From a phage: 64,000 bases of DNA. Every line of letters begins with the position of its first letter. The stretch's first letter is position 1. Under the pieces are notes generated by a model. It worked only from the letters and a program-made list of their open reading frames with translations, did no database searches and was not told where the DNA came from. This document shows positions 5,916-24,169 of the stretch, one piece after another. The position numbers and the translations under genes are program-made. The DNA lies in assembly GCA_036253495.1 (NCBI GenBank), contig GCA_036253495.1_4125.1; one strand, 5' to 3'.

Positions 5916-6182
5916 ATGAAAAAGAAAACAACATATCGCTATAATAAAAATTATCAATCCGTTGTATTAGATCACTCTATGCTCCCGCTCGTTGTCCCTG
6001 CCGTTGGTGTAGTCTATCAATCCATATACTGGTCAAGGAAACAACAAAAGTACTTAAAAGGCCCACTAGCACGTTATGAGGGTAACGGTGTATGGTCCGA
6101 TCCGTTACATCCAATCACTACGCGTTATATTGAATATTTTCCTTATTGTGACTACATTGAAATACATCCTAAATTTAATTGA
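5916..6182 (+). CDS. hypothetical protein, paralog of 6263-6520
   Basis: track ORF 88 aa; shared LP..P..G..Y....W......Y.....Y.GNG.W.DP..PI pattern. Confidence 0.65.
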   Translation: MKKKTTYRYNKNYQSVVLDHSMLPLVVPAVGVVYQSIYWSRKQQKYLKGPLARYEGNGVWSDPLHPITTRYIEYFPYCDYIEIHPKFN

Positions 6183-6262: not shown

Positions 6263-6520
6263 ATGGAACAATTCACACAATATCGGGTAAATCCTCAAGC
6301 TATGGCCTACGTAGAAGACCATAAAACGTTACCAGTACTGCAACCAGTTAAAGGCCGTATCTATCGTGGCCTTGCATGGAATACGGCCCAGGATGGATAT
6401 AAAACCGTTGCCGTGGGGATGTATTGCGGGAATGGTGAATGGTTTGATCCTAACAATCCGATTGCACTTGACAGTACTGAAAAAATGAAATGGGCCGACT
6501 ATATCGAGGATATCTCATAA
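6263..6520 (+). CDS. hypothetical protein, paralog of 5916-6182
   Basis: track ORF 85 aa; cassette promoter. Confidence 0.7.
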   Translation: MEQFTQYRVNPQAMAYVEDHKTLPVLQPVKGRIYRGLAWNTAQDGYKTVAVGMYCGNGEWFDPNNPIALDSTEKMKWADYIEDIS

Positions 6521-7947: not shown

Positions 7948-8157
7948 ATGATCTATACAGTATACAGCGTTCTAGGTACTATTGCAGGCGTACACGATAA
8001 CGTCAATGATGCTATGCGTACAGTACTGCAACAGGTTCCACTAAAGCCTAAGACTATTAAGCAGATGACAGCACGACTAACCAGGGCAAAGGCTGGCGGT
8101 GAAGTCTGGCAGGACTACGCGGATACGCAGATTATCATTGCAGTAAGTAATGATTAA
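7948..8157 (+). CDS. hypothetical protein
   Basis: track ORF 69 aa; SD CAGGAG. Confidence 0.6.
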   Translation: MIYTVYSVLGTIAGVHDNVNDAMRTVLQQVPLKPKTIKQMTARLTRAKAGGEVWQDYADTQIIIAVSND

Positions 8158-8202
8158 TGAATTAAATGATTCAGTACTAAAACTATTAGTCAGAAAATAA
8201 TC

Positions 8203-8231
8203 GGTGCATTTTTAAAATGCATCGTTTTTTA
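8203..8231 (+). terminator. rho-independent terminator
   Basis: GGTGCATT..AATGCATC hairpin then GTTTTTT. Confidence 0.6.
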
Positions 8232-8339
8232 TTTTAACCAGTACACTATAACGTATGAAATAGTTTCGACCTGTTATTATAACTTAGGGCAACTAGGGGC
8301 GGGTAATTGCTTAGCTCGTGTGAAGGGGTTCATAGGGTA

Positions 8340-8369
8340 TTGACTTTTTATATGAATCGTGTATTATAT
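8340..8369 (+). promoter_or_regulatory. sigma70-like promoter of the GTNYQ-family array
   Basis: TTGACT 8340-8345, TATTAT 8362-8367. Confidence 0.5.
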
Positions 8370-8397
8370 GATTGATATTAATTTTAAGGGAGTCCCT

Positions 8398-8595
8398 ATG
8401 CGTATTTTAACACAAGAAGAGCATCACGAAAGACTTATCAATAACATGGCTATGATAATGTATAAGTCTCATAAACGTGGTAATGCCTATAAACGTGAAT
8501 TAGTTATGGAACTATTCTTAGGAACTAACTTACAAAATGAATATGTTAAACTATATGTAAAAGAGTTATGTTTAGAGATAAATGGTAAACTATGA
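8398..8595 (+). CDS. GTNYQ-family small protein
   Basis: SD AAGGGAG + ATG 8398; motif LFLGTNLQ. Confidence 0.7.
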   Translation: MRILTQEEHHERLINNMAMIMYKSHKRGNAYKRELVMELFLGTNLQNEYVKLYVKELCLEINGKL

Positions 8596-8792
8596 AAATG
8601 CGTACATTAACTCAAGATGAATATCATCATATACTACGTAAAAACACGGCAAGAATTTACCAAAGCAATGTGCACTTAGAAAGAGTTGAGTTGTACCTGT
8701 TGATTACGATGGGAACAAACTATCAGGAAGTGTGGATAACTCACTATTTGGAATCTTTGAAAGCTGACATACGAGCTAGGAGAAAACTATGA
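8592..8792 (+). CDS. GTNYQ-family small protein
   Basis: track ORF; TMGTNYQ; ATGA coupling; near-duplicate of 8789-8989. Confidence 0.75.
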   Translation: MKMRTLTQDEYHHILRKNTARIYQSNVHLERVELYLLITMGTNYQEVWITHYLESLKADIRARRKL

Positions 8793-8989
8793 AAATGCGT
8801 ACATTAACCGAAAAAGAATATCAAGCTCTACTACGTAAAAACATGGTAAGGATTTACCAAAGCGATGTGCACTTAGAAAGAGTTGAGTTGTACCTTTTGA
8901 TTACAATGGGAACCAACTATCAGGAAGCATTGATATCGAAATATTTGGAATCTTTGAAAGCTGACATACGAGCGAGGTGCAAACATTGA
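8789..8989 (+). CDS. GTNYQ-family small protein
   Basis: track ORF; TMGTNYQ; near-duplicate of 8592-8792. Confidence 0.75.
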   Translation: MKMRTLTEKEYQALLRKNMVRIYQSDVHLERVELYLLITMGTNYQEALISKYLESLKADIRARCKH

Positions 8990-9195
8990 AAATCATAACA
9001 CAGACACAAGCATTTGGTCGTATATTGAAATACCTTGATGACATGATAGATATACATAGTGACCTCCCTAAAACTGTAATCGACGCCAAAAGAGCAGAAT
9101 ATCGCATGATGGCTGTACTGAACACAAACTTTCAGGAAGAGTATGTCAATGATTGGATTGGATTTTTAATTGAAGATATAAAGAGTAAACTATGA
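8986..9195 (+). CDS. GTNYQ-family small protein
   Basis: TTG 8986 after SD GAGGTG (track uses GTG 8977); motif LNTNFQ. Confidence 0.6.
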   Translation: MKIITQTQAFGRILKYLDDMIDIHSDLPKTVIDAKRAEYRMMAVLNTNFQEEYVNDWIGFLIEDIKSKL

Positions 9196-9404
9196 TTATA
9201 TTAACACCAGAGCAATATAGGAAACGTTACAATTCTAAGCAGATTGAAATCTTGCTGATATATGCAGACAGGGATGATGTATACTTATCAAAAGTTATGG
9301 AAAAAGAATTACTTATGGGTGTCTTCTTAGGAACTGACCACCAGAAATCTTATGTCCAAGAGTATCTAATAGCTCTTGAGAAATACATCAGGAGTAAACT
9401 ATGA
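9192..9404 (+). CDS. GTNYQ-family small protein
   Basis: track ORF; FLGTDHQ; ATGA coupling. Confidence 0.7.
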   Translation: MIILTPEQYRKRYNSKQIEILLIYADRDDVYLSKVMEKELLMGVFLGTDHQKSYVQEYLIALEKYIRSKL

Positions 9405-9625
9405 ACTGCATTAATAACTTTGAATACGAGGCTCGCTCAAGGTGTGCATCTCAAAAAGAGAACCACATTTACTTCACTATGATGTACTTATCTTGGAATG
9501 AAATTGAAGAAATGGTTGCTGAAGTATGGCTGTTTGAATTCATGGGGACGCAGTATCAGAATAGGTTTGTGGGTGAGTATCTTAATGTTCTTATGAAACA
9601 TATAGAAAGAAAGGGAATGAACTAA
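9401..9625 (+). CDS. GTNYQ-family small protein
   Basis: track ORF; FMGTQYQ. Confidence 0.7.
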   Translation: MNCINNFEYEARSRCASQKENHIYFTMMYLSWNEIEEMVAEVWLFEFMGTQYQNRFVGEYLNVLMKHIERKGMN

Positions 9626-9876
9626 TGAAAGTATTATCAAGCACTGAGTATCAATCTGCCCTATTCTCTTTACTAAACACCCTTCGCAAGAACAATGAAC
9701 TTTATCCTTCCCCTGAGAATGATGTAGTTAATGGTGACGTGTTTCTACTTAAATTCGTTGGAACTAATAAACAAGATATCTTCACTGATCGTTATATCAA
9801 TGCACTAAGAAACCTTGTAGCGTATAAAACCCGCCAGGCCAAAAGAGAATGGAAGAGACAATGCGATCCAGAATAA
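9625..9876 (+). CDS. GTNYQ-family small protein
   Basis: track ORF; FVGTNKQ. Confidence 0.7.
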   Translation: MKVLSSTEYQSALFSLLNTLRKNNELYPSPENDVVNGDVFLLKFVGTNKQDIFTDRYINALRNLVAYKTRQAKREWKRQCDPE

Positions 9877-10109
9877 ATCACATCATGTACGTTAAACTAT
9901 TTCAGAAACTAATCCACAAACACTATGATACAGTATCTGATAAACTCACTAATGATATCAGCAGACTTATTCACTGTGAAGCAGAGATGCTTGTACTGAT
10001 GACGGGAGACGATACACAAACAATCTCTAAGGCAATAGAGAACTATCTGGAAGCATATCAACAACATATAAGAACGGAAGTCTGGAGACGAGAGAATGAA
10101 AATCCTTAG
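9861..10109 (+). CDS. GTNYQ-family small protein (divergent)
   Basis: ATG 9861 (track 9849); degenerate motif MTGDDTQ. Confidence 0.55.
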   Translation: MRSRINHIMYVKLFQKLIHKHYDTVSDKLTNDISRLIHCEAEMLVLMTGDDTQTISKAIENYLEAYQQHIRTEVWRRENENP

Positions 10110-10311
10110 TGGGTATGAATATTACAGGCTGTTGCGAACTATACAAGCAAAAGTTTCTAGTATTTCTTTAAACAAATCTATTGCACAAGTGGACAAATGT
10201 GTTATAATAACTGAAATGAAGCTATCTATCTTCATTGGGACAAACTATCAAAGCATCTACACTGACGCATGGTTAGCAAGTCTACGTAACAAGGTGATAT
10301 CCAGAGAATGA
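10096..10311 (+). CDS. GTNYQ-family small protein
   Basis: track ORF; FIGTNYQ. Confidence 0.7.
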   Translation: MKILSGYEYYRLLRTIQAKVSSISLNKSIAQVDKCVIITEMKLSIFIGTNYQSIYTDAWLASLRNKVISRE

Positions 10312-10526
10312 AAAAATTACAAGGTTTTGAATATATTAAGCTTCTGCAAACCTGTGAAATCCAAAGAAGAAAGATTCAAAAGGCTAAAAGAATTACCGCA
10401 GAACGAAAGTTTACACTGATAACTGAAGTCTATGTAGAGGCACTCTTAGGCACAAACTATCAACAAACGTATATAGACCTATGGATTGATGCACTCCAGA
10501 AAGAGGTTAAAAGTAAATGCAAATGA
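10308..10526 (+). CDS. GTNYQ-family small protein
   Basis: track ORF; LLGTNYQ; ATGA coupling. Confidence 0.7.
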   Translation: MKKLQGFEYIKLLQTCEIQRRKIQKAKRITAERKFTLITEVYVEALLGTNYQQTYIDLWIDALQKEVKSKCK

Positions 10527-10741
10527 TTAATTTAAGTAAAGATGAATATTATGTACGTCTTGCAAAAACTTATTCATTACGCAAGGCCATTTATGAAAGT
10601 CACATTATTGAACAATCAAATAAGTGGATTGTAGTAAATGAAATCAAGATGCTTTCAGTCTTAGGAACAAACTATCAAGCGAGTGCTGTACTGAAGGTCA
10701 TTAATGCACTTCAAAATGAGGTCCAAAGTAAATGCAAATGA
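10517..10741 (+). CDS. GTNYQ-family small protein
   Basis: track ORF; VLGTNYQ; starts MQM overlapping ..KCK stop. Confidence 0.7.
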   Translation: MQMINLSKDEYYVRLAKTYSLRKAIYESHIIEQSNKWIVVNEIKMLSVLGTNYQASAVLKVINALQNEVQSKCK

Positions 10742-10995
10742 TCAATTTAAGTCAAGATGAATATAACGAGCGACTTGCAAAAATCTCACCTAAACGTAAT
10801 GCAATCTATCACAGCCAAGAAATTCAACACAGTAAGAAGATGATTATGTTTCGTGAGTTAAAGATGGGTGTCTTCTTAGGAACAAACTATCAAGAGACAG
10901 AAGTAAATCGCGTCATAACCGAGTTACTCATGGAAATCAGAGGTAAGCTGTACTTTCATCAAATGACCCAACCACTGAGGTGTAATGAGAAATGA
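10732..10995 (+). CDS. GTNYQ-family small protein
   Basis: track ORF; FLGTNYQ. Confidence 0.7.
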   Translation: MQMINLSQDEYNERLAKISPKRNAIYHSQEIQHSKKMIMFRELKMGVFLGTNYQETEVNRVITELLMEIRGKLYFHQMTQPLRCNEK

Positions 10996-11228
10996 ATAAA
11001 ATTAATAACATCAACTTAGCAGAAAGATTTGATAGAATTGGGGAAGCTCTGAGAAGATACGATAAAGCATATGGTCATTTAAGCTTTACCATAGAAACGA
11101 GATATGCCCTTGAAGAAGAGTTTAAAATGCATAGTCTCTTAGGCACACAGTATCAAAAACAATATGTTCAAAAATGGATTGAATGTTTAATCCAAACAAT
11201 TCATGTGAGGAACATAAAATGCAAATGA
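10992..11228 (+). CDS. GTNYQ-family small protein
   Basis: track ORF; LLGTQYQ. Confidence 0.7.
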   Translation: MNKINNINLAERFDRIGEALRRYDKAYGHLSFTIETRYALEEEFKMHSLLGTQYQKQYVQKWIECLIQTIHVRNIKCK

Positions 11229-11473
11229 TATACTTAACAGACGATGAAATAAAAGAAAGAATAATTAAATCCAGAAAACATACAAATCAACTGCCAAAAG
11301 ACCCAAATCAAACCCCTGCTGAAAGGAGTGCAGAAGTATTATATCAACAACTCCTGTACTTTCTTGGAACTGATAGACAGGATTATTATGTTCGATCGAT
11401 TCTTAGATATCTTAAAATGACTATTCAGGAAAAGATACATGACCAAATATATAAAAATCTTAACAGTCAATGA
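11219..11473 (+). CDS. GTNYQ-family small protein
   Basis: ATG 11219 (MQMIYL, family-typical; track 11183); FLGTDRQ. Confidence 0.65.
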   Translation: MQMIYLTDDEIKERIIKSRKHTNQLPKDPNQTPAERSAEVLYQQLLYFLGTDRQDYYVRSILRYLKMTIQEKIHDQIYKNLNSQ

Positions 11474-11690
11474 ATATCATAAGATTATCATGAAGACTAA
11501 TATTGAGAATTCTAAAAAATCAAATACCAAGTACATTCTGGAACACACATTTGAAGAACGACAATTAGCTTTAGTTGAAGCAAAACTTCTTGCACTATTA
11601 GGGACTAACTATCAAGACGAGTACGTAAGAAAACTAATATACCTTTTAACTAAACACATCAGGAAAAGAAATGCAGCACTTGACAGATGA
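11439..11690 (+). CDS. GTNYQ-family small protein
   Basis: track ORF; LLGTNYQ. Confidence 0.65.
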   Translation: MTKYIKILTVNEYHKIIMKTNIENSKKSNTKYILEHTFEERQLALVEAKLLALLGTNYQDEYVRKLIYLLTKHIRKRNAALDR

Positions 11691-11880
11691 CGAATACGGT
11701 GTTATCATCCTTGATGTTATCAATAAAGAATACCATAGGAAACAACGATACGCTTGTTATGAAGATAAACAGCTTTCTATAGCTGAACAACAATTAGTTC
11801 ATTTATTAGGAACAAACTATCAAGAACAATGCACTGAACGTTACCTGTATCTACTGTCGAGGAAAACACAAAGATTATGA
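11671..11880 (+). CDS. GTNYQ-family small protein
   Basis: track ORF; LLGTNYQ. Confidence 0.7.
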   Translation: MQHLTDDEYGVIILDVINKEYHRKQRYACYEDKQLSIAEQQLVHLLGTNYQEQCTERYLYLLSRKTQRL

Positions 11881-12092
11881 AAATTTTAAGCGAAGGTGAT
11901 GAAGTAATATTACTTATAGAGAATTCAAGTAAATTCTTAAACATATCACTGTCTGATATAGATGAAGATGACAAAGAAGTACTGAGAGCAGATTTAAGAG
12001 TACTGTTACATCTCGGAACAAACCTACAAGAACAATTTGTTGAGGACTACATCAATGAACTTAAAGAATCAGTACTGAGAAGATGCAAATGA
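11877..12092 (+). CDS. GTNYQ-family small protein
   Basis: track ORF; HLGTNLQ; ATGA coupling. Confidence 0.7.
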   Translation: MKILSEGDEVILLIENSSKFLNISLSDIDEDDKEVLRADLRVLLHLGTNLQEQFVEDYINELKESVLRRCK

Positions 12093-12325
12093 AAATCATT
12101 TCACCTACTGAATACAACCAACTATTAAGTAGTTTAATTCCAAAGTTGCATCGTAGCTGGTCAGCAGAATTATCACAGGATGAAAAAAATATTCTAATAA
12201 GTGAAATCTATGTTCTAGCTACTATAGGAACTAACTATCAAGAACACATCATCGTGGATTATATTAATACACTTAAAAGGGTAATACAATTAAAATGCAC
12301 AGACAGCACATACACAAACCCCTAG
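12083..12325 (+). CDS. GTNYQ-family small protein
   Basis: track ORF; TIGTNYQ. Confidence 0.7.
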   Translation: MQMKIISPTEYNQLLSSLIPKLHRSWSAELSQDEKNILISEIYVLATIGTNYQEHIIVDYINTLKRVIQLKCTDSTYTNP

Positions 12326-12525
12326 GAACAGCAGAATACATTGAACTAATGGCAGCAAACTTCTCATCCTTTCAGAAACTGAGGCAAGAATCAAATAATG
12401 ATTTAGAATATCATATCAAAAGTTCAGATTTAAGATTGTTACTCACTCTAGGAACAGACAGTCAGTACAAATTCGTACAGGAGCATATTAGAGCACTTTT
12501 AAATGGCATCAGGGATAAACTATGA
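12295..12525 (+). CDS. GTNYQ-family small protein
   Basis: track ORF; TLGTDSQ; start uncertain. Confidence 0.6.
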   Translation: MHRQHIHKPLGTAEYIELMAANFSSFQKLRQESNNDLEYHIKSSDLRLLLTLGTDSQYKFVQEHIRALLNGIRDKL

Positions 12526-12737
12526 AGGAAATATCAAATCAAGAGTACTTGGCACTATTCAGAAAAAATAAGAAAGAATTTATTGTACTTGATACAAGAA
12601 CTGATATAGGGGAACTTGAAAAAAATCTTTTGCGTTCAGATATGATAGTACTGATACTCTTAGGAACACAGCATCAAGAAAGAACTGTTAATTCACACAT
12701 AGAAATACTTAAGAAGCTTATACAGGAAAAGTTATGA
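12522..12737 (+). CDS. GTNYQ-family small protein
   Basis: track ORF; LLGTQHQ; ATGA coupling. Confidence 0.7.
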   Translation: MKEISNQEYLALFRKNKKEFIVLDTRTDIGELEKNLLRSDMIVLILLGTQHQERTVNSHIEILKKLIQEKL

Positions 12738-12955
12738 GAATCATAACACAAAAAGATATGTTTAAGTTAGCAAGGGATCATGCATCTGAAATTGATGCTA
12801 TAGTATCAAAAAGTTACAATGACCCTTATACACAAGATGTACACTACAATGAATTATGGGTGTATATACTTTTAGATACAAATTATCAAGAGCAAGCAGT
12901 ACAGAGGTATTTGAGTGCTTTAAGTACTGCTACTGCTAATGGAATAGGTGTTTAA
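12734..12955 (+). CDS. GTNYQ-family small protein
   Basis: track ORF; LLDTNYQ. Confidence 0.7.
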   Translation: MRIITQKDMFKLARDHASEIDAIVSKSYNDPYTQDVHYNELWVYILLDTNYQEQAVQRYLSALSTATANGIGV

Positions 12956-12957
12956 AA

Positions 12958-13299
12958 ATGAAAACTAATATTCAACTTAAGGTTTATAAATCATTTGCAA
13001 GTACATATATCAAATGCAGTCTATGTAAAGATGTAATGGACTACAAAGGTAAGCCATTCACGATTACTTACGATTCTACAAGAGGTTTTTATATATCTTT
13101 TGCTGATTACAAATATAACATGTACGAACACATTGACATTGAAGATTTAAGTACTTTATCTGAAGAAGAATACTTTCAAGAATCATTAGTATGGGATTTA
13201 GAGTTTCCTATGCCATTGGTACATAAGATGATAGTACTAATAAAAGAAACTAAACAGGAGCCTAATAGTGCTTATGAAGAACACATTATTGAGTACTGA
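12958..13299 (+). CDS. FQxS-family protein
   Basis: track ORF; motif SEEEYFQESLVWD. Confidence 0.7.
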   Translation: MKTNIQLKVYKSFASTYIKCSLCKDVMDYKGKPFTITYDSTRGFYISFADYKYNMYEHIDIEDLSTLSEEEYFQESLVWDLEFPMPLVHKMIVLIKETKQEPNSAYEEHIIEY

Positions 13300-13302
13300 A
13301 CC

Positions 13303-13533
13303 ATGAAAAGATTATCATTCGAAGAGTACTGCAAGCTTATTAATACTTTACAACCACAAATAAAACAAATAAATTCTCTTCCTATATCCCAAGAAGAACG
13401 TGCAGTACTGAAAGATGAGTTAATTTTAAAATGCACAGTAGGTACTAACTATCAAGCTGATAGTGTTCGTTATCTAATTTGGGGTTTAATGTGCATAATA
13501 GAGAACAAAGCAGTTGACAGTACTCTAATGTAG
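13303..13533 (+). CDS. GTNYQ-family small protein
   Basis: track ORF; TVGTNYQ. Confidence 0.7.
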   Translation: MKRLSFEEYCKLINTLQPQIKQINSLPISQEERAVLKDELILKCTVGTNYQADSVRYLIWGLMCIIENKAVDSTLM

Positions 13534-13582
13534 TGCTATAGTGTCAGTACTTTTTCGAGCGTTAAAATATAGGGTACAGATT

Positions 13583-13828
13583 ATGTTAAAATTTTTAAAT
13601 TTCCTTATCGTCTTGTGTATTGTTCTTGGGATTGCACCGTTTGTATTAGCGTATCTGGATTCAGATGAAATGCACAAGATGAATTGCACAAAGACAGGAC
13701 AGAGTAGAAAAGAGACGGTTATGATGCCCGTAACGGTTATTGTGAATAACATGCCGATTACAAACATGGTCCCTACCCTAACGACAACGTACCAGTACTC
13801 TTGTGATGACGGAGAGAGGTGGAGATAA
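13583..13828 (+). CDS. hypothetical small membrane protein
   Basis: ATG 13583 within track ORF 13541; N-terminal TM helix FLIVLCIVLGIAPFVLAYL. Confidence 0.45.
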   Translation: MLKFLNFLIVLCIVLGIAPFVLAYLDSDEMHKMNCTKTGQSRKETVMMPVTVIVNNMPITNMVPTLTTTYQYSCDDGERWR

Positions 13829-13835
13829 TGCGATA

Positions 13836-14162
13836 ATGCGTAAGATCAATTGTATAAAAAGAGCGAATACATGTTTCATTGCGTTGACCAATGTACCGGG
13901 TGGGTCTGGTGTTAAGATATTTGAGTACAATAAAGTTGATAATTGTTTCTATTGGGTAGAAGGTATCAAATCATATGAAAATACGATAGCAGTACCGAAT
14001 CTAGTTGATATCTCTGAAGAAGAAGAGTTTCAGTACATGTTAGTACACGATGATTCTTTTGGGTTGACATACAAAGAGATGAAGGAAGTACAAAGGCAGA
14101 TGATATCATGTATGAATATTTCTAAGCATTTCCTTCAAAATATTCATCCAATTTACGTATAA
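13836..14162 (+). CDS. FQxS-family protein
   Basis: SD GGAGAGAGGTGGAGA + ATG 13836; motif SEEEEFQYMLVHD. Confidence 0.65.
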   Translation: MRKINCIKRANTCFIALTNVPGGSGVKIFEYNKVDNCFYWVEGIKSYENTIAVPNLVDISEEEEFQYMLVHDDSFGLTYKEMKEVQRQMISCMNISKHFLQNIHPIYV

Positions 14163-14171
14163 GAGATTAAT

Positions 14172-14507
14172 ATGAAATTCAACATTCATAGAATTAATTC
14201 CGGTTGTATATTTGCTTATACGCATGAGAATTACAAGAAGTACATGAATCATGAAGTACATTATGTTTTTGAGGACGGTAAAGAATATTTTGCTTATTTG
14301 AGTCCCAGGAGTTTAGGTAAGTACGAGTTGCTTCAGGATCTTTCTCTTATGCAGGAAGATGAATTATTTCAGTACAGTCTAATTCATGACCCTTATATGT
14401 TTGATATAGATATTATGTGCAGTTTACAGAAGAGGATGAAAGAAGTTTGGGATTCGATTAAAAGAGGTGATTGTATAGAATATGATAGTATACAAGAAGA
14501 TGCCTAA
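14172..14507 (+). CDS. FQxS-family protein
   Basis: track ORF; motif QEDELFQYSLIHD. Confidence 0.7.
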   Translation: MKFNIHRINSGCIFAYTHENYKKYMNHEVHYVFEDGKEYFAYLSPRSLGKYELLQDLSLMQEDELFQYSLIHDPYMFDIDIMCSLQKRMKEVWDSIKRGDCIEYDSIQEDA

Positions 14508-14700
14508 CGGATATGAATTGAAGTACAGACATTTTATTCGAAATGTAGATTCAGATCCTTTTAATGTTAAAATGGCAGAGTTCGATTTATTATTTTATCT
14601 AGGAACGAGAGCACAGCCACAATTCGTTGATGCATACATAAGGGCTTTACGAACAGAGATAGTATGCACACCAAAGGAGTCTAAATGTACAAAAATGTAA
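14482..14700 (+). CDS. GTNYQ-family small protein
   Basis: track ORF; FYLGTRAQ; start uncertain (alt ATG 14500). Confidence 0.6.
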   Translation: MIVYKKMPNGYELKYRHFIRNVDSDPFNVKMAEFDLLFYLGTRAQPQFVDAYIRALRTEIVCTPKESKCTKM

Positions 14701-14942
14701 ACCATCATTTGTACGCATCAAAGTACAGGGATTTTTGTTTACAAGGGGGCGATGAAGATTTTGCTTTGCGATTATCGGAATTTAATATGTTATTTTATCT
14801 TGGTACATCAGTACAAGAAGAAATGGTACAGAAATTTATCAAGCACCTTGAACGAAAAATTCATACGCAAATTTTGGTTGTTAAGTTACAGAATGAGATA
14901 AATGAATACAATGCAGAATCTAACAATAGTACAGGATCTTAG
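14685..14942 (+). CDS. GTNYQ-family small protein
   Basis: track ORF; FYLGTSVQ. Confidence 0.65.
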   Translation: MYKNVNHHLYASKYRDFCLQGGDEDFALRLSEFNMLFYLGTSVQEEMVQKFIKHLERKIHTQILVVKLQNEINEYNAESNNSTGS

Positions 14943-23214: not shown

Positions 23215-23748
23215 ATGATTATTGATGCTTACAATGCTGAGGAAATGCAGGAATTATCTCGTAAAATCAACATTATAGTTCCTTTGCTTAAGGATTGCAG
23301 TACTGGTTTGATTCCATCACGAGACATTATTAAAGAAGGATACTACCTACAGGCAGTCTATAAGGGTGGTACATTTCATCGTTGTCGTGTATTACGTGAT
23401 GGCCTTCCTGCACTTACACTCATTGGTATTGGTATTGCCTTATGCGGTACGAACCGTTTGTACTTGAATGAAAAAAATCAAATCATGAATTTGTTTTATA
23501 CAGGAAAAAGTACTGAATTATATTTTGGTATTCAGAACTGGTGGGATACAGTAAAGAGTAGTACTATTGAAATCCCAAAATACAATTACAACGCATTTGA
23601 AGAGCAGATGTTTCAATTGTCATGTACAGATGACATGTACATGATTCTACGTCTATATATGGAGATGCAAATGAACTTCAGAAGTAATTTATACATTGAT
23701 ACTTCAACATTTGAATTCGAAGATGTATTCGTTGATGGTATACTATGA
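23215..23748 (+). CDS. FQxS-family protein
   Basis: track ORF; motif EEQMFQLSCTDD. Confidence 0.7.
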   Translation: MIIDAYNAEEMQELSRKINIIVPLLKDCSTGLIPSRDIIKEGYYLQAVYKGGTFHRCRVLRDGLPALTLIGIGIALCGTNRLYLNEKNQIMNLFYTGKSTELYFGIQNWWDTVKSSTIEIPKYNYNAFEEQMFQLSCTDDMYMILRLYMEMQMNFRSNLYIDTSTFEFEDVFVDGIL

Positions 23749-23972
23749 AGTATATTCCAAAACACCAGTACTACAGGATGTGTTCTGACATTTACACAAA
23801 ATGGAATACATTTCATCCCCTTTTGAAGAAGAGGCGTCCATATCATGATTACAAGTTGAATCATTTTCTTGGAACTAATTATCAAGAGGTTGTGATGAAA
23901 GATTACATTTTTAACCTTCAGAAATTAATTCAGAATAAAGTTCAAGGAAAGGGGGAGTCACCGTGGGTATAA
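23745..23972 (+). CDS. GTNYQ-family small protein
   Basis: track ORF; FLGTNYQ; ATGA coupling. Confidence 0.7.
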   Translation: MKYIPKHQYYRMCSDIYTKWNTFHPLLKKRRPYHDYKLNHFLGTNYQEVVMKDYIFNLQKLIQNKVQGKGESPWV

Positions 23973-24169
23973 GACACAGAGACATGCAAGATATTCTTAA
24001 CCAATACAGTGCTCAAATGTTCACTGCAATCAGGTCTTCCAATCAAAATGACGTGTCGGAATTACAGTTACTGATGTACATAGGGACACAATACCAGGAG
24101 GCTTCAGTTGAGACGTATATTAAGTACCTATTGGGTATTATAAGGATGAAAAATGGACAATACTTTTGA
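23963..24169 (+). CDS. GTNYQ-family small protein
   Basis: track ORF; YIGTQYQ. Confidence 0.7.
   Translation: MGIRHRDMQDILNQYSAQMFTAIRSSNQNDVSELQLLMYIGTQYQEASVETYIKYLLGIIRMKNGQYF

Follow-up and report, generated by a model that had tools for sequence, protein, structure and literature searches.

Two adjacent genes in the small-gene array of a jumbo coliphage occupy a slot that holds a single gene in every relative examined, and they very probably represent a real copy-number variant that was produced by unequal recombination and carries allelic mosaicism between its copies. Judged from their affinities base by base, the two genes, referred to here as copies a and b, are most likely two allelic forms of one array slot that have come to lie in tandem, and are neither an old pair nor a fresh self-copy.

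The window (the whole 64,000-nt stretch of DNA that was analysed) derives from an Asteriusvirus jumbo coliphage whose nearest relative is Escherichia phage A4. A 5.6-kb query over the region matched 36 phage records, all of them Escherichia or Salmonella Asteriusvirus jumbo phages of the PBECO4, 121Q and slurp01 types; A4 aligned with 96.1% identity at 99% coverage, the other phage records with 80-84% identity. We designate as X the allele that the closest relatives (A4 and the contigs L004 and L011-L015) carry at the slot of interest, and as Y the allele of the L005/L006 lineage. The slot lies in an array of same-strand genes encoding proteins of 65-87 aa, which share a conserved L-G-T-N-Y-Q motif in the family alignment and are mostly joined by overlapping stop and start codons; a family HMM matched 22 contiguous ORFs in the window. 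The array and those of its genes that are relevant to the pair are the following:

8398-13533, + strand: array of 22 paralogous small genes (ORF list, alignment, identity matrix and HMM)
8398-8595, + strand: gene A, the first array gene, 100% conserved among close relatives
8592-8792, + strand: copy a, 66 aa, the resident X allele (ORF and allele comparison)
8789-8989, + strand: copy b, 66 aa, a mosaic allele (ORF and allele comparison)
8986-9195, + strand: array gene D, downstream of b, with a TTG start overlapping the b stop
12958-13299, + strand: unrelated 113-aa ORF ahead of the last array member (ORF list)

Gene D is present as an allele with a 99% amino acid match to A4 and L014 and of only 65-88% in other close relatives. 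Four more ORFs, at 14479-14939 and 23736-24166, give weak matches to the profile of the array family (E = 1e-7 to 2e-9) and may be distant family members outside the main array. An unrelated pair of neighbouring paralogs is situated upstream of the array (5916-6182 and 6263-6520; 37% aa, E = 3e-19); the ORFs at 12958-13299 and 13803-14162 were considered as another such pair and rejected, as BLASTP gives no alignment between them. No tRNA genes were found in the window (1-64000), GC skew is positive in all of its 2-kb bins, and its + strand holds all array genes as well as the long ORFs upstream of the array.

Both copies belong to phrog_4148, an ORFan family of Asteriusvirus-like phages that is annotated as 'unknown function'. 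The profile is matched by copy a with E = 3.9e-16 and by copy b with E = 8.8e-16 (positions 1-71/72 of 74) and likewise by every other array member tested, four of them with E = 1e-10 to 1e-23. When 1.84 billion representative proteins were searched with the family profile, only 86 clusters were recovered, whose lengths range from 52 to 121 aa except for one of 269 aa. The family alignment has an invariant T42 and a conservation of at least 90% at Q45 and L56, and a and b keep all three; isoelectric points across the family extend from 4.5 to 9.7. An AlphaFold2 model based on the family alignment predicts a small helical single domain (mean pLDDT 94.6) with helices at residues 8-17, 19-23, 28-38 and 45-64 and the GTNYQ turn between the last two. 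Searches for related domains gave no Pfam match above threshold and none in NCBIfam; a sequence profile search of the PDB yielded only a ParB nuclease at E = 0.09, Foldseek found nothing with E < 1 in the PDB, and among viral models it retrieved only family members from Asteriusvirus phages.

A sequence-only reading of the window had singled out the two genes as nearly identical neighbours within a far more diverged array. Their coordinates, their translations as 66-aa proteins and their overlap by 4 nt (ATGA) are confirmed, and the similarity is indeed exceptional within the array: the next most similar pair (10517/10732) is 51% identical in amino acids and 72% in nucleotides, and the median of all pairs is 24% aa, so that the resemblance of a and b is far beyond chance and the two are not as diverged as other members. 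'Nearly identical' is nevertheless too strong a description of copies that agree at 174 of 201 nt (86.6%, or 13.4% different) and at 52 of 66 aa (79%; 52/65 by BLASTP, E = 2e-37). A repeat search carried out independently of the ORF comparison recovers the pair as a head-to-tail repeat with a 197-nt period, and segment divergences single out one stretch without any difference:

8587-8783 and 8784-8980, + strand: two 197-nt direct repeat units, offset by ~5 nt from the gene boundaries (87% identity)
8942-8973, + strand: b nt 154-185, 32 nt identical to a nt 154-185 (window 8745-8776)

The 27 nucleotide differences between the copies change the amino acid in 14 codons and are silent only in six, with an overall Nei-Gojobori omega of 0.51. 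They cluster at nt 21-84, 140-153 and 186-198 and sit on columns that are variable in the family (Mann-Whitney p = 0.017), all conserved family residues being kept in both copies. Near-identical copies with randomly scattered differences, as expected of a recent duplication in place, were not seen. Over nt 154-185 a and b differ at 0/32 positions, whereas either copy differs from L006 or 121Q at 12/32; descent from an X allele would explain this stretch equally well as gene conversion between the copies.

The relatives uniformly carry one copy. In 33/33 phage genomes that matched the pair, both halves of the 398-nt query fell on one span of ~210 bp, and the annotated regions of A4, slurp01 and 121Q show one gene of 195-201 nt at the slot. 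The a-like protein cluster has nine members, and each of the metagenomic contigs that we fetched with an a-like protein (L004, L011-L015) contains one copy, as does each of six contigs from another lineage (L005-L010). Some of these single-copy relatives are contigs whose flanks are ~0.5% diverged from the window. The comparison of copy number among isolates that the sequence-only reading had proposed thus gives two copies in the window against one in every relative examined, and among ~45 genomes and contigs the pair is private to the window genome. Database searches concur: none of 5.8 billion protein clusters is >80% identical to b and only four are related to it, neither IMG/VR nor the JGI metagenome contigs contain patterns specific to the a/b junction or to b DNA, a search of IMG/VR at the protein level for other pair-bearing or b-like genomes found nothing, and exact look-ups of proteins a and b returned no record. 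Among phage genomes, the best blastn match to the centre of b is A4 with 90%.

The additional DNA amounts to one repeat unit. Aligned to the window at 8393-8993 with the gap in its best position, L012 shows one 197-nt gap and two mismatches (8412 and 8654), and L014, L013 and A4 likewise align with exactly one gap of 197 nt. One placement of this gap and the junction between the copies are as follows:

8745-8941, + strand: extra 197 nt relative to single-copy relatives (alignments with L012, L014, L013 and A4)
8777-8803, + strand: a/b junction, GCTAGGAGAAAACT/ATGAAAATGCGTA (boundary comparison and site tables)

The placement is one of several equivalent ones because a nt 154-185 equals b nt 154-185; the extra sequence runs from a nt 154-186 to b nt 153-185. 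Almost all positions that separate the window from its X relatives lie inside it, namely in the last 13 nt of a and in b nt 21-153. The right side of the junction is the same as that of the boundary upstream of a (GGTAAACT/ATGAAAATGCGTA at 8592), so that in condensed form the a/b boundary reads AGAAAACT/ATGAAAATGCGT and the one upstream of a GGTAAACT/ATGAAAATGCGT. The boundary after b reads TGCAAACA/TTGAAAATCATA, its counterpart in L011 TGCAAACT/ATGAAAATCATA, and a perfect AAACTATGAAAAT is common to both unit boundaries in L011. The left side of the junction is a gene 3′ end with three bases that are private to a (T186, A190 and A192) and that also make a predicted AGGAG ribosome-binding site for b. 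The junction re-creates the stop/start overlap motif AAACTATGAAAATG of the outer boundary of the unit, and versions of this boundary motif, aaactATGA, recur at five array boundaries. From this match it follows that the duplicated unit begins and ends in a motif that comprises a gene end (..K-L-stop) and a gene start (M-K-..), and a junction placed at a motif common to the boundaries fits the signature of out-of-register (unequal) recombination.

The two copies differ in their relation to the alleles of other phages. Over nt 1-185, copy a differs from the single gene of L012 at 1/185 nt (nt 63), and it shares T21 and A126 with L012, L014 and L015, not with A4, L004, L013 and L011. Its 3′ end, with Arg64 and Lys-Leu-stop, is private to the window genome, and the Arg64 codon AGA is closer to the AGG/AGC of the outgroups than to the TGC (Cys) of all X alleles. 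Conversion of the N-terminus of a from the upstream paralog A (both read TQ-E/D-E-H/Y-H) is not claimed, the nucleotide match being only partial. In copy b the 3′ part (nt 154-201) equals X alleles of the A4/L012 type, and the downstream flank too is that of the single-copy relatives, while site affinities assign two upstream segments to the other lineage:

8810-8872, + strand: Y-type (L006-like) tract, b nt 22-84 (site affinities)
8928-8939, + strand: second, short Y-type patch, b nt 140-151, codons 47-51 (site affinities)

Over nt 7-84, b is identical to L006 at 76/78 positions (97.4%); in the same comparison with L006, six neighbouring genes reach 82-91%, a nt 7-84 84.6% and b nt 85-201 only 76%. 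Scored against A4 (X) and L006 (Y), the affinity of b changes repeatedly along the gene, from X at nt 14 to Y at 22-84, X at 91-102 and Y at 108 in the first half, and from X at nt 118-138 to Y at 140-151 and X at 157-198 in the second, and this switching is non-random (maximum chi-square permutation test, p <= 0.0005; runs test, p <= 0.005). At 17/22 of its differences from a in nt 1-185, b has a base that occurs in at least one allele of another lineage (L006, L005, 121Q or slurp01), and of the five b bases found in neither X nor L006, four are those of 121Q or slurp01. The X-like parts of b resemble alleles of subgroup 2 (C21, C126) and not a, and the single genes of the outgroups are closer to b than to a. 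With the two Y tracts and the junction set aside, 3 of ~107 nt distinguish a from b. Since b is a mosaic of bases from other lineages, most of the difference between the copies would be pre-existing allelic variation and not mutation since the duplication.

Changes of this type extend beyond the pair: the array gains and loses units, both at the level of the genus and among close relatives. Among the fetched loci, the window has 22 family members in a row and slurp01 has 32, these being the two ends of the range. Gene A is absent from the L005/L006 lineage, where the promoter leader runs straight into the ATGCGTA of the following gene (L006 4001-4195), and in L011 (1410-1634) the same leader is followed by a fusion of A with an a-type gene (MRTLTQEEYHH...); each of these two changes, the L011 fusion and the loss of A in L005/L006, shortened the head of the array by one unit independently of the other. 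L012 contains an extra gene between D and E, while L015 lacks K and has an additional N-like gene. Adjacent members in the window are more similar than random pairs even with b left out (permutation p = 0.002), as would be expected of an array that has grown through local duplication. The adjacent pair that ranks second in similarity (10517-10741 and 10732-10995; 51% aa, with a 198-nt repeat of 72% nt identity) is an older local duplication, as both genes are found in most close relatives (L015 being without K). Furthermore, genes D (8986-9195), E (9192-9404), J (10308-10526) and M (10992-11228) occur as alternative alleles of 65-88% aa identity among relatives that are otherwise 97-100% identical, in sharply bounded blocks with 20-30 differences per 150 nt beside blocks with none. 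Such alleles indicate that diverged versions circulate and are frequently exchanged between lineages.

How the pair came about can be pictured in the following way. An ancestor resembling L012/L014, with a single X-type gene, would have gained a unit by unequal (out-of-register) recombination between occurrences of AAAC(T/A)(A/T)TGAAAAT, a short motif in which one array gene ends and the following one begins. In the course of this event or shortly afterwards, the second copy would have acquired sequence belonging to a diverged version of that gene, by heteroduplex or patch conversion or by outright capture of the allele, and the donor would have been a co-infecting relative; both the direction (gain here, not loss elsewhere) and co-infection as the source of the allele are what we infer. 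A recent gain in the window phage seems to us to have an even chance. It is favoured by the position of a, whose nesting among the single-copy alleles depends on 2-3 sites, by the single copy in all relatives including L011 with its basal X allele, and by the tract of b from another lineage, given that diverged alleles are commonly exchanged at neighbouring slots. Counting against it, no single-copy phage with a b-like allele was found among the sampled phages, clusters and metagenomes, and the three private bases within 7 nt at the 3′ end of a are unexpected of a recent X allele and fit an older pair better. The proposal of the sequence-only reading, a recent duplication by unequal crossover, therefore holds in part: the one-unit tandem duplication with its junction in the boundary motif stands, while recency cannot be derived from similarity in copies that are 13.4% apart, of which b is a cross-lineage mosaic and a lies 1/185 from L012.

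The opposite direction of change, which corresponds to the 'contraction' half of what the sequence-only reading had envisaged, is possible and in our judgement has clearly less than an even chance. The duplication would have taken place in the common ancestor with the X relatives, the copies would have diverged in place and the relatives would have lost a unit, one crossover within nt 154-185 having popped out 197 nt to leave the chimeric single gene of A4 and L004-L015; of the genomes sampled, only that of the window would have retained the pair. The composition of the single-copy gene agrees with this, as it equals a(1-153) + b(154-201), just what one pop-out crossover in those 32 nt gives: wherever the copies differ in nt 22-153 it has the base of a, and at nt 186-198 it has that of b. 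The 3′ end of a keeps an ancestral-like Arg64 codon where b and all X alleles have the derived Cys64, outgroup genes resemble b more than a, and a relative-rate test assigns 17-18 changed sites to a and 3-5 to b (p = 0.001-0.017), as in asymmetric divergence after duplication. However, a is nested in the single-copy diversity (1 nt from L012, with T21 and A126 shared with one subgroup), so that a single old deletion would have to be followed by homologous exchange, or several deletions would have to fall within the same 32 nt. The identity of a with L006 in nt 7-84 (84.6%) is moreover ordinary for the lineages and it is the 97.4% of b that is anomalous; no burst of change in a is thus needed, and b still calls for lateral exchange. 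Nor are 0/32 differences in nt 154-185 expected of a pair that is 13% diverged overall, and the pair is present in only 1 of ~45 sampled genomes and contigs. Gain and loss are each argued from no more than a few (2-3) sites.

Taken literally, the sequence-only reading would have the pair arise by very recent self-duplication followed by point mutation, possibly sped by positive selection. In its favour, no other pair comes near the similarity of these two neighbouring genes, which also have the same length, and the variable patches show an excess of amino acid-changing differences (non-synonymous in 14 codons, synonymous only in 6; omega 0.51 overall). Yet 27/201 nt differ where the flanks are ~0.5% diverged from single-copy relatives, the X-like parts of b resemble subgroup 2 (C21, C126) and not a, and most of the distinctive bases of b are those of other-lineage alleles, which independent mutation would not reproduce; we hold this history to be highly unlikely because the matches to other lineages extend to silent sites. 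Fainter still is the prospect that an assembler strung together two alleles from a mixed phage population. That the pair occurs in one sequence only, and that the copies look like two alleles of one gene, would suit such an artefact. The bases T186, A190 and A192 of a, however, are found in no other allele and could not be built from the reads of two single-copy alleles, and it is this feature of the junction that makes an artefact barely credible. The longest identical stretch between a and b is 32 nt, below normal assembly k-mer sizes, and both reading frames, the ATGA overlap and the ribosome-binding site are intact.

Signals for expression are situated directly ahead of the array:

8202-8224, + strand: terminator-like hairpin with T-run, between an upstream 69-aa gene and the array (scan)
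8340-8367, + strand: sigma-70-like promoter candidate TTGACT-16-TATTAT before the array (consensus scan, in which the promoter-like total is not above shuffled expectation)

Two near-consensus sigma-70-like sites, each after TG, lie inside the array at 11680-11708 (TTGACA-17-TATCAT) and at its end at 13514-13542 (TTGACA-17-TATAGT), and their sequence suggests internal promoters. In phage vB_Ec-M-J (L016, 1-21525) a distance of 99 nt separates the annotated end of the left direct terminal repeat from the first array gene. By homology this end corresponds to window ~8250-8400, so the first 8.3 kb of the window may be terminal-repeat sequence and the array may be the first block of unique DNA beside the left terminal repeat. 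Between the 69-aa gene and the array, A4 (A4_316, L001 1899-2717), L004 (1526-2347) and L013 (987-1805) contain an ORF of 272-273 aa, and L014 (977-1399) has a 140-aa ORF inserted ahead of the first array gene; the inserted ORF is absent from the window (8157-8398), L012, slurp01 and 121Q, and its position is where the left terminal repeat of vB_Ec-M-J ends. The idea that the 273-aa ORF of A4 and L004 is a homing endonuclease driving exchange was dropped, as it has no Pfam match. From the position of the array, the promoter-like site and the analogy with the early region of phage CBB, the array proteins are plausibly early-expressed, surface-variable small helical binders with a part in host takeover or counter-defence. 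Such a role would explain why extra or variant copies are tolerated or favoured.

The locus is an ordinary copy-number variant, an event of a familiar kind. The poxvirus 'genomic accordions' that Elde et al. reportedly described in 2012 involve amplification of the counter-defence gene K3L under host pressure. They consist of near-identical copies in a row, the number of which changes within one population in laboratory time. In the phage as in the poxviruses, copy number changes by recombination between tandem units and extra copies are raw material for variants; however, the phage has only two copies, 13.4% apart and thus not a run of near-identical copies, and its genes would have a counter-defence role by inference only. 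Mosaic exchange of alleles among co-circulating virulent phages is also a feature of the hyperplastic regions of T4-type phages and of the pre-early region of T5. The array resembles these regions in its small genes, its presence/absence variation and its sharply bounded divergent blocks in near-identical genomes; the difference is that exchange in the window phage has produced or maintained two alleles of one slot in tandem.

As to literature on the array itself, our searches turned up nothing beyond a general reference to paralogs in phage CBB, a Rak2-like jumbo phage in which 22 ORFs are reported to have arisen by duplication (PMC5259590). CBB also has RpoD-like promoters and mostly short hypothetical ORFs near its terminal repeat, which are suspected to be early host-takeover genes (PMC5259590). 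It belongs to the same phage group, and the window array starts ~100 nt past the position of the vB_Ec-M-J repeat end and after a sigma-70-like site. The CBB paper lists paralogs only, and describes no copy-number difference between isolates, no junction and no allelic mosaic (PMC5259590). The offset between repeat unit and reading frame has a parallel in a bacterial cluster of tandem paralogs, where the evolutionary unit is likewise offset from the ORF and consists of the 3′ end of one gene, the boundary and the 5′ part of the next (PMC2568036). That cluster is chromosomal and has longer genes with intergenic spacers, whereas the phage genes overlap by 4 nt (PMC2568036). The exchange partners of the phage array are probably co-infecting phages.

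The pair offers a single-base view of the gain and loss of a unit in a tandem phage gene family, in which the substrates of recombination are the short stop/start overlap motif and homologous gene bodies, and diverged relatives supply the differences between copies. Because alleles move between lineages, the similarity of neighbouring paralogs in a phage is no measure of how old a duplication is. A more general process that we might call 'allele stacking', in which unequal recombination between co-infecting relatives brings diverged alleles of one slot next to each other, is an idea that we regard as rather unlikely. If it were true, one genome could collect surface-variant small binders from the population and would hold a recombination-driven store of counter-defence specificities, unlike one built by duplication and subsequent divergence. 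Should the family prove to counter host defences, its variable patches at residues 8-20 and 47-51, together with the phages that have one or two copies, would provide a natural experimental contrast.
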